The position numbers and the translations under genes are program-made. 64,000 bases of DNA, taken from assembly GCF_011045215.1 (NCBI RefSeq), contig NZ_CP049201.1; one strand, given 5' to 3'. Of the stretch, positions 3,622 to 26,603 are shown one piece after another. Origin of the DNA: Escherichia coli. GTDB taxonomy: Bacteria; Pseudomonadota; Gammaproteobacteria; Enterobacterales; Enterobacteriaceae. The notes beneath the pieces are model-generated. The model worked only from the letters and a program-made list of their open reading frames with translations. It was not told the DNA's origin and did no database searches. How positions within the stretch are numbered: position 1 is the first letter of the stretch; each line of letters starts with the position of its first letter.

Positions 3622-4066
3622 AACCTATATTCACACAGAAGCTGAGTTGCGTGTGGATCAAGACAAACTTGAACAGGATCTTACCGACGCAGGATTTGAT
3701 CGAGAAGATATCTACAATGCCCTGCTTTGGCTGGAAAAGCTTGCGGATTATCAGGAAGGACTGGCAGAACCGATGCAACTGGCCTCTGATCCACTCTCCA
3801 TGCGTATTTATACCCCTGAGGAGTGTGAAAGACTGGATGCCAGCTGTCGTGGTTTTCTGCTTTTCCTTGAGCAAATTCAGGTGCTTAACCTTGAAACCCG
3901 TGAAATGGTGATAGAGCGAGTGCTCGCGCTGGATACCGCAGAGTTCGACCTGGAAGACCTGAAATGGGTAATCCTGATGGTGTTGTTCAATATTCCGGGC
4001 TGCGAAAATGCGTACCAGCAAATGGAAGAATTACTCTTTGAAGTGAATGAAGGTATGCTGCATTAA
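3593..4066 (+). CDS. smg: Smg protein (DUF494)
   Basis: 157-aa [33 protein letters not shown]...; start overlaps dprA 3' end by 29 nt. Confidence 0.9.
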
Positions 4067-7162: not shown

Positions 7163-7293
7163 TTTATCAGACAATCTGTGTGGGCACTCGAAGATACGGA
7201 TTCTTAACGTCGCAAGACGAAAAATGAATACCAAGTCTCAAGAGTGAACACGTAATTCATTACGAAGTTTAATTCTTTGAGCATCAAACTTTT

Positions 7294-8835
<1,542 letters not shown>

Positions 8836-8903
8836 CCTTAAAGAAGCGTTCTTTGTAGTGCTCACACAGATTGTCTGATGAAAATGAGCAGTAAAACCTC
8901 TAC

Positions 8904-8980
<77 letters not shown>

Positions 8981-9022
8981 AATTTGCACGGCAAATTTGA
9001 AGAGGTTTTAACTACATGTTAT

Positions 9023-9098
9023 GGGGCTATAGCTCAGCTGGGAGAGCGCCTGCTTTGCACGCAGGAGGTCTGCGGTTCGATCCCGCATAGCTCCACCA
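9023..9098 (+). tRNA. alaU: tRNA-Ala (TGC)
   Basis: GGGGCTATAGCTCAGCTGGGAGAGCGCCTGCTTTGCACGCAGGAGGTCTGCGGTTCGATCCCGCATAGCTCCACCA; 76 nt with G3:U70. Confidence 0.97.
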
Positions 9099-9161
9099 TC
9101 TCTGTAGTGATTAAATAAAAAATACTTCAGAGTGTACCTGCAAAGGTTCACTGCGAAGTTT

Positions 9162-9174
9162 TGCTCTTTAAAAA
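9162..9174 (+). promoter_or_regulatory. 16S-23S spacer boxA element
   Basis: TGCTCTTTAAAAA in the spacer downstream of tRNA-Ala, at the usual position of the second boxA. Confidence 0.6.
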
Positions 9175-9272
9175 TCTGGATCAAGCTGAAAATTGAAACA
9201 CTGAACAACGAAAGTTGTTCGTGAGTCTCTCAAATTTTCGCAACTCTGAAGTGAAACATCTTCGGGTTGTGA

Positions 9273-12175
<2,903 letters not shown>

Positions 12176-12268
12176 ACAACGCCGAAGCTGTTTTGGCGGA
12201 TTGAGAGAAGATTTTCAGCCTGATACAGATTAAATCAGAACGCAGAAGCGGTCTGATAAAACAGAATT

Positions 12269-12388
12269 TGCCTGGCGGCCGTAGCGCGGTGGTCCCACCT
12301 GACCCCATGCCGAACTCAGAAGTGAAACGCCGTAGCGCCGATGGTAGTGTGGGGTCTCCCCATGCGAGAGTAGGGAACTGCCAGGCAT
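12269..12388 (+). rRNA. rrfD: 5S ribosomal RNA (first copy)
   Basis: TGCCTGGCGGCCGTAGCGCGGTGGTCCCACCTGACCCCATGCCGAACTCAGAAGTGAAACG...GCCAGGCAT; 120 nt. Confidence 0.97.
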
Positions 12389-12400
12389 CAAATTTAGCGT

Positions 12401-12476
12401 GCTGATATGGCTCAGTTGGTAGAGCGCACCCTTGGTAAGGGTGAGGTCCCCAGTTCGACTCTGGGTATCAGCACCA
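12401..12476 (+). tRNA. thrV: tRNA-Thr (GGT)
   Basis: GCTGATATGGCTCAGTTGGTAGAGCGCACCCTTGGTAAGGGTGAGGTCCCCAGTTCGACTCTGGGTATCAGCACCA; 76 nt. Confidence 0.95.
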
Positions 12477-12513
12477 CTTTTTAGGTTAAAGTTCGGCAGA
12501 TTAGAAAAGAATT

Positions 12514-12633
12514 TGTCTGGCGGCAGTAGCGCGGTGGTCCCACCTGACCCCATGCCGAACTCAGAAGTGAAACGCCGTAGCGCCGATGGTAGTGTGGGGC
12601 CTCCCCATGCGAGAGTAGGGAACTGCCAGACAT
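12514..12633 (+). rRNA. rrfF: 5S ribosomal RNA (second copy)
   Basis: TGTCTGGCGGCAGTAGCGCGGTGGTCCCACC...GCCAGACAT; 120 nt; differs from rrfD at a few positions including compensatory changes in the terminal helix. Confidence 0.95.
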
Positions 12634-12644
12634 CAAATCAAGCG

Positions 12645-12693: not shown

Positions 12694-12909
12694 TTAATGG
12701 ATTACCTGCGATAAAAATGCCCTCGTACGCTCTGATTTAGGATGCGCAAAAAATTCATCAGGTGCAGCTTGCTCCACTATTTCCCCACGATCCATAAAAA
12801 TTACCCGGTCAGCGACGGTTCGTGCAAACCCCATCTCATGTGTTACACACAACATTGTCATACCCGACTGCGCCAGCCCAATCATCGTATCCAGCACCTC
12901 TTTCACCAT
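12694..12909 (-). pseudogene. yhdZ: yhdZ 3' fragment (ABC ATPase residues 182-252) separated from its 5' part by an IS insertion
   Basis: Translates MVKEVLDTMIGLAQSGMTMLCVTHEMGFARTVADRVIFMDRGEIVEQAAPDEFFAHPKSERTRAFLSQVIH, containing the ABC H-loop (CVTHE) but no Walker A/B; contiguous in frame with the N-terminal fragment once the IS is removed. Confidence 0.9.
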
Positions 12910-12910
12910 C
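12905..12910. repeat. Target-site duplication (ACCATC), right-hand copy relative to yhdZ
   Basis: ACCATC immediately abuts the IS end at 12911; identical hexamer at 14865-14870. Confidence 0.8.
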
Positions 12911-15412
<2,502 letters not shown>

Positions 15413-24383: not shown

Positions 24384-25046
24384 ATGGCAAAAAGAACCAA
24401 AGCCGAAGCTCTGAAGACCCGGCAAGAACTGATTGAAACTGCCATCGCCCAGTTTGCGCAGCATGGCGTAAGCAAGACGACGCTCAACGACATTGCCGAC
24501 GCCGCTAACGTTACGCGTGGCGCTATCTACTGGCACTTCGAAAACAAGACTCAACTGTTTAATGAGATGTGGTTGCAACAGCCTTCATTGCGGGAGTTAA
24601 TCCAGGATCACTTGACGGCTGGGTTAGAGCATGACCCGTTTCAACAATTGCGTGAAAAATTGATTGTCGGCTTGCAATATATTGCCAAAATTCCCCGCCA
24701 GCAGGCGTTGCTGAAAATCTTATATCACAAATGTGAATTTAATGATGAGATGCTGGCCGAGGGAGTGATACGCGAAAAGATGGGCTTTAATCCGCAGACT
24801 CTCCGTGAAGTATTGCAGGCGTGTCAGCAAAAAGGTTGTGTAGCAAATAACCTCGATTTAGATGTTGTGATAATTATTATTGATGGTGCCTTCAGCGGAA
24901 TTGTTCAAAACTGGTTAATGAATATGGCGGGTTATGATCTTTATAAACAAGCCCCCGCTCTTGTCGATAACGTATTAAGAATGTTCATGCCAGATGAAAA
25001 CATAACGAAATTAATTCATCAAACGAATGAATTAAGTGTCATGTAA
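24384..25046 (+). CDS. acrS: TetR-family transcriptional repressor AcrS (EnvR)
   Basis: 220-aa ORF divergent from acrE; N-terminal TetR HTH (SKTTLNDIADAANVTRGAIYWHFENK). Confidence 0.92.
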   Translation: MAKRTKAEALKTRQELIETAIAQFAQHGVSKTTLNDIADAANVTRGAIYWHFENKTQLFNEMWLQQPSLRELIQDHLTAGLEHDPFQQLREKLIVGLQYIAKIPRQQALLKILYHKCEFNDEMLAEGVIREKMGFNPQTLREVLQACQQKGCVANNLDLDVVIIIIDGAFSGIVQNWLMNMAGYDLYKQAPALVDNVLRMFMPDENITKLIHQTNELSVM

Positions 25047-25054
25047 ATTCACAT

Positions 25055-25228
25055 TCAGTCCTGAAAATTCAGTTCGTCACAGTTAACCAGTTTTAGTGGA
25101 TTAACTGAGTTCATATTGCGGCATTTGTCTGTTTCTGTTGCCAGCAGTTCAATCCACTGCATCAGTAAAGTATCAAACAGAAAAACGAAGACAGCGAAAA
25201 CGACGAGCCACCAATACTTGCGAATCAT
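25055..25228 (-). CDS. yhdU: Small membrane protein YhdU (DUF2556)
   Basis: Internal ATG gives 57 aa MIRKYWWLVVFAVFVFLFDTLLMQWIELLATE...; single TM helix. Confidence 0.7.
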   Translation of the reverse strand: MIRKYWWLVVFAVFVFLFDTLLMQWIELLATETDKCRNMNSVNPLKLVNCDELNFQD

Positions 25229-25311: not shown

Positions 25312-26196
25312 TTACTTTGTAATGAGATCGGGGTCAACTTCGCTTAACCGGCTTCGTTTTGACAGGTTGCCGGTCTTTCTTTTTTTCACTTTCGCCAGTT
25401 CTTCCGCAGAGTAATGCGACGCGACATCCAGCCGTCGAAGCCCCATTTTGATGTACTCGCTGTTGATCTCAATACCAATGAATTTTCGTCCGCTGGCGAT
25501 GGCTACGGCACCGGTAGTAAAGCTACCAGCAAACGGGTCGAGAACGATATCGCCTGGGTTGGAAGAGGCGAGAATAATGCGTTTCAGTAAGGCTTCCGGT
25601 TTTTGCGTCGGGTGGTTTTCATATTCATCCATCAAATAACGCACGCGAGGAAAATCCCAGACGTTACCCGGTACTTTTTGATGATTGTAAGGCTGTGGAG
25701 GATTTTTGCGATAATCGATCAACGCGCGCTGCGATCCGGTTTTGGCTTCTACCAGAATAGCATCACCGTTGAATGTGTAGTTCTTTGCGTCTTTCACCAT
25801 CATCAGGATGGGTTCGTACATGGAGCCGTAGTGTTTTTTCGCCTGCACTCCAGAACTGTCATAGGACCAGACGATCCGACTTTTGATGGTAAAAAGCTTG
25901 CGGCACTGGAGATCGATAAAGGGCATGTTTTCCGTACTGTTCATGATGTACATGCTGCCCTGCTTTTTCAGAACGCGGTGGCACTCTGCAATCACTTCAA
26001 ACAGCCAGTCGATAAACAGATCTTCTTTCCAGGCTTCGATCAGACCATCAAAATTTTTACCGATGTTATACGGTGGGTCGGCAAAGATCAGATCGACGCT
26101 TTCAGTAGGTAGCTTTTTAAGTTCGGCAAGGGCATCACCGTGAATAATGGTCTTAGCTTCATTACCAAACCGGGTCGGTTCACATCCTGTTCTCAT
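25312..26196 (-). CDS. yhdJ: Solitary DNA adenine (N6) methyltransferase YhdJ
   Basis: 294 aa from ATG at 26196 (MRTGCEPTRFGNEAKTIIHGDALAELKKLP...); DPPY catalytic motif (IFADPPYNIG) and AdoMet-binding region. Confidence 0.9.
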   Translation of the reverse strand: MRTGCEPTRFGNEAKTIIHGDALAELKKLPTESVDLIFADPPYNIGKNFDGLIEAWKEDLFIDWLFEVIAECHRVLKKQGSMYIMNSTENMPFIDLQCRKLFTIKSRIVWSYDSSGVQAKKHYGSMYEPILMMVKDAKNYTFNGDAILVEAKTGSQRALIDYRKNPPQPYNHQKVPGNVWDFPRVRYLMDEYENHPTQKPEALLKRIILASSNPGDIVLDPFAGSFTTGAVAIASGRKFIGIEINSEYIKMGLRRLDVASHYSAEELAKVKKRKTGNLSKRSRLSEVDPDLITK

Positions 26197-26221
26197 GGTC
26201 ACTCCCTTTGTGACACCTATA

Positions 26222-26258
26222 AAAAAGGCGCTTCCCCATGCCGAGTAGCGCCTTTTTA
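26222..26258 (-). terminator. Rho-independent terminator downstream of fis
   Basis: AGGCGCTACTCGGCATGGGGAAGCGCCT hairpin followed by TTTTTT on the reverse strand. Confidence 0.75.
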
Positions 26259-26281
26259 ATCAAGCATTTAGCTAACCTGAA

Positions 26282-26578
26282 TTAGTTCATGCCGTATTTT
26301 TTCAATTTTTTACGCAGCGTACCACGGTTGATGCCCATCATCAGCGCAGCACGGGTCTGGTTACCACGGGTGTATTGCATCACCATGTCCAACAGGGGCT
26401 GTTCTACTTCAGCCAGTACCAGCTCATAGAGGTCATTCACATCCTGACCATTCAGTTGAGCAAAATAGTTCTTCAGTGCCTGTTTAACCGAGTCACGCAG
26501 GGGTTTTTGGGTTACCTGATCCTGAGAGTTAACGGTAGAAACGGTCAGTACGTCAGAATTTACGCGTTGTTCGAACAT
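26282..26578 (-). CDS. fis: Nucleoid-associated protein / global regulator Fis
   Basis: 98-aa [101 protein letters not shown]. Confidence 0.98.
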
Positions 26579-26603
26579 AGTTCTGTCAGCTCTTTATTTC
26601 TGT

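Follow-up and report, generated by a model that had tools for sequence, protein, structure and literature searches.

yhdJ (M.EcoKII) of Escherichia coli, a solitary DNA adenine methyltransferase with relatives in mobile restriction–modification systems

The gene yhdJ lies on the minus strand at positions 25312..26196 of a 64-kb stretch of Escherichia coli chromosome (contig NZ_CP049201.1), which we analysed as a whole and refer to as the window. Its closest described counterpart is the K-12 enzyme named M.EcoKII in REBASE, and K-12 YhdJ was described as M.EcoKII by Broadbent et al. 2007, according to the citation in PMC4444293. The gene is thus already known: its characterisation dates back to 2007, and the standard tables of E. 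coli methyltransferases (MTases) list it as an orphan. M.EcoKII recognizes ATGC(m6A)T, is natively silent and methylates the second A of ATGCAT upon overexpression (PMC4444293). The cloned K-12 gene protects DNA against NsiI, whereas native methylation was not detected at 1644 ATGCAT adenines, and deletion or inactivation of yhdJ in K-12 is without effect (PMC4444293). An ATGCAT methylation signal was likewise not seen in natural isolates of E. coli, and the M.EcoKII motif serves as an unmethylated negative control in later methods papers; YhdJ is not mentioned by Blow et al. 2016. An earlier note on this DNA had named absence of methyltransferase activity as a point that would tell against its assignment. 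Such an absence holds narrowly, for native ATGCAT methylation in K-12, and does not extend to the cloned enzyme, which is active.

The Salmonella enzyme is natively active, as all 513 ATGC(m6A)T sites are lost in a yhdJ deletion mutant (PMC9239280). It resembles the E. coli protein in its position between dusB–fis and yhdU, its length of 294 amino acids (aa), its sequence (~80-82% identity) and an identical fis terminator, but differs in a ~22-nt leader and in its native methylation (~500 sites, versus none detected in E. coli), and the Salmonella locus also carries a GGDEF-EAL gene between yhdU and the TetR-family gene acrS/envR. Two other solitary MTases, Dam and Dcm, are chromosomally fixed, conserved across enterics and non-essential, as is YhdJ. 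Dam and Dcm nevertheless methylate nearly all of their sites and act in repair, replication timing and very-short-patch repair, whereas no role is known for YhdJ, whose methylation is silent or partial. According to the literature, the Caulobacter orphan CcrM is a cell-cycle-regulated enzyme with GANTC as its target and cannot be lost by its host, whereas YhdJ targets ATGCAT and is dispensable. To this background we add that the real partner endonuclease, for which we searched specifically, is absent from the window, and that intact sister restriction–modification (R-M) systems exist in the same hosts.

A solitary beta-class adenine methyltransferase beside fis

The open reading frame (ORF) of the window is intact, begins with ATG and encodes 294 aa, 292 of which (99%) are identical to K-12 YhdJ in an alignment without gaps. 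The two differences, I29L and A31T, are conservative N-terminal substitutions that fall outside the catalytic motif and the motif binding S-adenosylmethionine (SAM). The YhdJ equivalog model of NCBIfam (NF008572) covers residues 1-294 of 294 with 588.9 bits against a cutoff of 292, Pfam PF01555 (N6_N4_Mtase) matches aa 34-251 with an E-value of 2.4e-64 (217.7 bits against a gathering score of 26.7), and the top PADLOC model is MTase_II (8.9e-156). The earlier note had called the gene yhdJ and had recognized the DPPY motif of N6-adenine MTases, and our results bear out both statements. Given its 99% identity to the K-12 allele, the window allele probably has ATGCAT specificity as well.

A regular-expression search of the translation located DPPY, the catalytic motif IV, at aa 40-43 (26068..26079, minus strand; DNA GACCCACCGTAT) and DPFAGSF, a SAM-binding motif I of the FxGxG type, at aa 220-226 (25519..25539, minus strand). 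They align with DPPY and DPFFGVG, respectively, of the CcrM structure 6pbd. Just ahead of motif I stands the conserved beta-class motif HPTQKP (aa 195-200; 25597..25614, minus strand), which is identical in the CcrM alignment. The order of the motifs, DPPY first and DPFAGSF C-terminal to it, is the circularly permuted order of the beta class. By sequence homology, the nearest solved chain is CcrM (6pbd, 1.9e-33), followed by 8urk/9c3u, M.MboIIA and M.RsrI; the beta-class matches among solved structures include 1g60 (6.3e-27) and 1eg2 (1.3e-26), and DPPY, HPTQKP and motif I all line up with these relatives. By analogy with them, SAM would bind at the C-terminal DPFAGSF region, the target adenine would flip into the N-terminal DPPY pocket and site recognition would use the central segment, about aa 95-190. 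Although CcrM is the best solved-structure match and shares the motif order and the orphan state, YhdJ is not its ortholog, as the CcrM equivalog of NCBIfam (NF050803) gives YhdJ 136 bits against a cutoff of 830. CcrM is also longer (366 aa) and has an extra C-terminal domain, whereas YhdJ aligns to CcrM residues 11-267 and carries a 37-aa basic tail.

A weak match to Pfam Cons_hypoth95 (26.8 bits against a cutoff of 24, aa 9-58) would instead make YhdJ an RNA MTase resembling RsmD, and RefSeq does call a truncated copy of the gene, in LR-25, an 'RsmD family RNA methyltransferase'. The match is limited, however, to the DPPY-motif segment common to all amino-methyltransferases, the RsmD equivalog reaches only 20.4 bits against a cutoff of 117.5, over its full length the protein matches DNA MTases, and methylation of ATGCAT in DNA is experimentally established in the literature. 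On these grounds we rejected the RNA MTase reading, to which we give practically no credence.

We identify the ORF, with a probability of roughly 0.93, as the E. coli core gene yhdJ (M.EcoKII), encoding a solitary SAM-dependent beta-class N6-adenine DNA MTase that is the orphaned modification (M) subunit of a controller–restriction–modification (C-R-M) system. Within this assignment, we regard as demonstrated the identity of the protein, its fold class and motifs, its orphan status, where it came from in evolution and the purifying selection acting on it.

The ORF list also contains a 296-aa version of the protein that starts from a GTG at 26202, two codons 5' of the ATG. We prefer the 294-aa form because a GGGAG Shine-Dalgarno sequence (26202..26206, minus strand) lies 5 nt before the ATG and because RefSeq chooses this same ATG in near-identical genomes. 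A 169-aa ORF antisense within yhdJ (25603..26112, plus strand) matched nothing in Pfam or PADLOC and in all likelihood arises as a side effect of the coding frame on the other strand.

The neighbours are those that the earlier note had given. Upstream, fis (26282..26578, minus strand; NCBIfam NF001659, 180.9 bits) is separated from yhdJ by 85 bp, and downstream yhdU (25055..25228, minus strand; Pfam PF10831, 3.9e-36), which encodes a small membrane protein of the DUF2556 family, follows after 83 bp. The far boundary of the locus is formed by acrS/envR, encoding a TetR-family repressor (24384..25046, plus strand; NCBIfam NF007430, 432.9 bits). The order dusB–fis–yhdJ–yhdU–acrS corresponds to that of the conserved chromosomal position of YhdJ, and the K-12 locus has the same gene order and base-for-base identical fis–yhdJ and yhdJ–yhdU spacers. 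The window as a whole is E. coli chromosome collinear with PapM-32-1 (trkA, rrnD, yhdZYX, acrFE, acrS, yhdU, yhdJ, fis, dusB, prmA, panF, nanR), in which yhdJ is annotated at the matching coordinates.

Relatives with restriction partners and the origin of yhdJ

We compared 80 loci encoding YhdJ relatives, taken from species-representative genomes. The 25 enteric loci (Escherichia, Citrobacter and Salmonella; 76-99% identity) all show the order dusB–fis–yhdJ, and yhdU and acrS follow in each of the 24 that extend past the gene, the contig of E. albertii stopping inside yhdJ; fis is 100% identical among the enteric loci. The 56 non-enteric loci (58-71% identity), from Pseudoalteromonas, Marinobacterium, Nostoc/Anabaena, Prochlorococcus, Pseudomonas, many Bacteroidota and Clostridia, lack the dusB–fis–yhdU–acrS neighbours. 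At 45 of these 56, a conserved ORF of ~340-400 aa begins 1-61 bp downstream of the methylase gene. This family matches the PADLOC model REase_II PDLC03455 with E-values of 1e-61 to 1e-157, and several members are named 'type II restriction endonuclease' by NCBI; searches of the family against Pfam and NCBIfam gave no match, so that its naming rests on PADLOC and the source names.

The same endonuclease family is found in Citrobacter freundii, Enterobacter bugandensis and Yersinia. The loci of these members have a common C-R-M layout, in which the gene of a 69-aa helix-turn-helix controller (C) precedes that of a 343-aa endonuclease (R), and a convergent gene for a 305-aa methylase overlaps the endonuclease gene by 29 bp; genes for integrase and transposase are found close by. 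Mobilizable ColE1-type plasmids (4.4-12 kb) of E. coli, Klebsiella and Enterobacter carry the same three-gene module, and on them the methylase gene has the RefSeq label 'yhdJ'. Among 5426 complete E. coli genomes, three harbour the module, in each case on a plasmid. The enteric C-R-M methylases are 75% identical to chromosomal YhdJ over 263-290 residues, and 81-84% identical to it in the central segment presumed to read the target, a level similar to that of Salmonella YhdJ (84%). The M subunits of E. coli plasmid NZ_AP027820.1, C. freundii CP056244.1 and E. bugandensis share the motifs of YhdJ and form its sister clade in our tree, but they are longer (305-307 aa), end in a different C-terminal tail and are encoded on mobile DNA together with R and C partners, both of which the window lacks.

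The C. freundii CP056244.1 island that carries the C-R-M system also encodes, at 9735-10616 of locus L095, a protein with an SRA domain resembling PvuRts1I, a modification-dependent type of restriction enzyme, beside a primase/D5-like gene, and looks like a small defence island. A paper on a 'YhdJ-like' system of plasmid pCS36-4CPA was set aside, as it concerns a different methylase and a different endonuclease.

The earlier note had reported no endonuclease in the flanks, and every search that we made agrees with it. No nuclease model in PADLOC or Pfam matched any of seven ORFs on the flanks or antisense to the gene, the 169-aa one among them, and on this basis a cryptic restriction partner in the flanks was rejected; yhdU does not encode a nuclease, its sole PADLOC match being a weak, chance-level one to KwaA (E 0.0039). 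We built a hidden Markov model (HMM) from 38 of the partner endonucleases and ran it on the six-frame translation of the window, which returned nothing (best E 0.96). The enteric R and C proteins gave scattered tblastn matches only against the window (best E 0.025 to 0.7), with best E-values of 0.68 for the R proteins and of 0.23, again scattered, for the two 69-aa C proteins. A remnant of the true partner was rejected on the strength of these HMM and tblastn results. At the DNA level, the M gene alone aligns between the window and the plasmid C-R-M system (70% over 710 nt). The partner endonuclease family of the YhdJ relatives is identified, and it is absent from the 64-kb window. The orphan status claimed in the earlier note is therefore upheld in the window, and it coincides with the literature label 'orphan MTase M.EcoKII' (PMC4444293).

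As our inspection was confined to 64 kb of the genome, an endonuclease encoded outside the window could conceivably form a functional R-M system together with yhdJ. We hold this to be highly improbable: the cognate endonuclease type occurs in the three plasmid-bearing genomes mentioned above, always on small plasmids with an M gene of their own, the harmlessness of yhdJ loss in K-12 (PMC4444293) argues against it, and no trace of a cognate enzyme was found in the window.

In a neighbour-joining tree, the chromosomal orphans are monophyletic and sister to the enteric R-M-linked M genes, and they are nested among R-M-linked methylases of other phyla. We conclude that yhdJ is an M subunit orphaned from a C-R-M type II system. 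The topology also makes a single acquisition by the ancestor of Escherichia, Citrobacter and Salmonella a reasonable suggestion, though not a rigorous one, because the tree is distance-based and carries no bootstrap support. The statement of the earlier note that the gene is not part of an R-M system accordingly stands for its present state, that of an orphan, and fails for its origin, which points to the M subunit of a C-R-M system. In keeping with the behaviour of an orphan MTase, and unlike mobile R-M genes, yhdJ has been kept vertically, and its chromosomal position is the same in Escherichia, Citrobacter and Salmonella.

yhdJ is present in 5417 of the 5426 complete E. coli genomes (5387 at ≥80% coverage), a prevalence from which we conclude that it is not a chance feature, and it directly follows fis in 57620 of 57705 Salmonella genomes (PMC10111431). 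About 30 of the 5417 E. coli copies are partial. In one of them, LR-25 (NZ_AP027500.1, 715849-716047), just the first 199 nt of yhdJ match, and its RsmD label is an annotation artefact of the shared motif in the DPPY region.

The descent from an R-M methylase, the silence of K-12 yhdJ and the lack of a deletion phenotype (PMC4444293, PMC9239280), as well as a common truncation at codon 151 in S. Paratyphi A (PMC9239280), are what one would see if yhdJ were the remnant of a lost R-M system in the course of decay, devoid of present function. Yet the ratio of non-synonymous to synonymous substitution rates (dN/dS) is 0.05-0.09 within Escherichia, where dS is unsaturated (0.05-0.57), the ORF retains its full 294 codons in Escherichia and Salmonella and in most Citrobacter, the gene is nearly universal in both species sets counted above, and the cloned enzyme is active (PMC4444293). 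We consider decay very unlikely. Judged by its substitution pattern, yhdJ is under strong purifying selection and is not a decaying relic, because its dN/dS is low, its ORF is full-length and its presence is near-universal.

Genomic islands and phage satellites are known to integrate at the 3' end of fis (PMC10111431), and yhdJ may plausibly have arrived through integration at this site.

The fis terminator and the yhdJ leader

The 85-bp spacer between fis and yhdJ contains the intrinsic terminator of the dusB–fis operon (26221..26257, minus strand), a GGCGCU...AGCGCC hairpin set between A5 and U6 that ends ~25 nt before the yhdJ ATG. The predicted fold of the spacer RNA has an energy of -29.4 kcal/mol (z -3.5), which none of 200 shuffled sequences equalled; a simple terminator scan missed the hairpin, whose loop is above the limit of the tool. 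Neither the hairpin nor the T-tract differs between Escherichia, Citrobacter and Salmonella, and both are the same again at a fis locus without yhdJ (L089), where homology with the window ends at 26219, just beyond the T-tract. The terminator thus belongs to fis and predates yhdJ, because it is conserved at this yhdJ-less locus and the homology runs out past the T-tract. L089 itself (3797-3860) comes from an enteric genome with an identical Fis and neither yhdJ nor yhdU, and its fis terminator is followed by two convergent unannotated genes of 72 and 765 aa without Pfam match.

A crude consensus-match scan of the minus strand between the terminator and mid-fis (26197-26600) found no sigma-70-like promoter. 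Transcription of yhdJ would then be weak and would stem mainly from read-through of the terminator or from an unrecognised promoter. Weak transcription fits the silence of YhdJ in laboratory E. coli, and read-through fits the exponential-phase peak of methylation in Salmonella, when fis is highly transcribed.

Several observations weigh against our reading of yhdJ as an orphaned but functional MTase that depends on such weak transcription. Native YhdJ activity in E. coli has never been observed in the literature. The ATGCAT specificity of the R-M-linked relatives is presumed from the likeness of their sequences. In an engineered K-12 background, deletion of dusB–fis did not significantly change yhdJ expression, the comparator strain in that study having a cat cassette between fis and yhdJ (PMC4751926). 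Lastly, Salmonella has the same terminator and an active YhdJ, so that the terminator cannot by itself explain the silence in E. coli; we rejected differences in the terminator as the cause of this silence, as hairpin and T-tract are the same in both.

The ~22-nt leader, which joins the terminator to the start codon and includes the ribosome-binding region, is unrelated in sequence between Escherichia on the one hand and Citrobacter and Salmonella on the other. In Escherichia, it is predicted to fold into a hairpin, GUCAC-AAAGGGA-GUGAC (26197-26214), that is specific to the genus and places the yhdJ Shine-Dalgarno sequence in the loop next to the AUG. This hairpin might bear on the silence of YhdJ in E. 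coli as opposed to its activity in Salmonella.

A scan of the yhdJ spacers against Rfam gave nothing at the gathering score. Below threshold, the Salmonella small RNA STnc40 matches 26221-26288 on the minus strand (25.6 bits against 45, E 0.25), a segment that overlaps the 3' end of fis and the terminator, and the match probably reflects merely the terminator hairpin.

Elsewhere in the window, a copy of IS100 (IS21 family; 1954 bp, 12911-14864) is inserted in the ABC-transporter ATPase gene yhdZ, which it splits, and is flanked by the target duplication ACCATC (12905-12910 and 14865-14870). It carries istA (13756..14778, minus strand) and istB (12977..13759, minus strand), and the insertion is absent from the otherwise collinear PapM-32-1. 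Matches to IS100 occur in 3152 of the 5426 E. coli genomes, copies with ≥99% identity being common. An rrnD-type rRNA operon (16S, tRNA-Ile, tRNA-Ala, 23S, 5S, tRNA-Thr and a second 5S) lies between yrdA and yhdZ at about 7290-12640; it was placed through collinearity with the annotated genome, and its coordinates are approximate owing to the offset introduced by IS100.

Possible roles of YhdJ

As a conserved orphan encoded at a fixed locus beside the global regulator gene fis, YhdJ could be an epigenetic regulator comparable to Dam or CcrM, with ATGCAT methylation switching particular promoters in some conditions. In Salmonella, ATGCAT methylation is indeed the most condition-dependent mark (PMC9239280), and more of it is seen in mid-exponential than in late stationary phase. 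The Salmonella yhdJ deletion mutant, however, has a hardly altered transcriptome, with 12 changed transcripts in LB and none in SPI-2 medium; a methylated site is present in only one of the 12 altered genes, and no defect in growth, motility or virulence was seen (PMC9239280). Differentially methylated ATGCAT sites in Salmonella show no association with changes in expression. The window, for its part, contains eight ATGCAT sites. None of them falls between 152 and 32495, and towards higher coordinates none comes within ~6 kb of yhdJ or fis. A regulatory role is poorly supported given the Salmonella data, and we deem it unlikely. The eight sites compare with 12.9-15.1 expected, and a depletion of ATGCAT in the window was rejected, the difference being unremarkable for 64 kb.

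YhdJ might alternatively provide a chromosomal immunity, or 'vaccine', whereby methylation of ATGCAT would blunt both restriction and post-segregational killing by related C-R-M modules. This idea, which parallels a proposal made for Dcm and EcoRII, concerns the role of YhdJ and is compatible with its identity as an orphan MTase. Mobilizable ColE1-type plasmids of E. coli, Klebsiella and Enterobacter, as well as a C. freundii island, do carry complete C-R-M modules with an M subunit 75% identical to YhdJ, and the central region of these methylases is as close to E. coli YhdJ as is that of the ATGCAT-methylating Salmonella enzyme. Strong purifying selection despite knockouts that reveal no regulon or phenotype also points in this direction, and the authors of PMC9239280 proposed a defence-related role. 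EcoT22I, a common laboratory enzyme, has ATGCAT specificity, and its nomenclature reads as an E. coli origin. Against immunity stand the undetectable ATGCAT methylation in E. coli (PMC4444293) and its incompleteness in Salmonella, where ~61% of the sites carry the mark in one or more growth phases, since partial methylation would not stop a restriction enzyme. Furthermore, an R-M type as rare as the one counted above implies weak selection, and the ATGCAT specificity of the plasmid system is itself a deduction from sequence. We found no statement of the immunity idea for YhdJ in the searchable literature, although it may be implicit in REBASE. On balance, we view it as a tentative possibility.

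We advance with the same caution the wider proposal that YhdJ could be a domesticated remnant of a mobile C-R-M module, which perhaps arrived at the fis 3' hotspot and has been kept as a standing immunity against ATGCAT restriction systems of its own family, which small ColE1-type plasmids would still spread among Escherichia, Klebsiella, Enterobacter and Citrobacter. The literature asks explicitly why an apparently silent, phenotype-less methylase is conserved in nearly all E. coli and Salmonella. If true, domestication as immunity would explain purifying selection on a methylase without a regulon or a laboratory phenotype, and the sister R-M plasmids of 4-6 kb present in the same hosts give the question of its conservation a cheap and concrete experimental handle.

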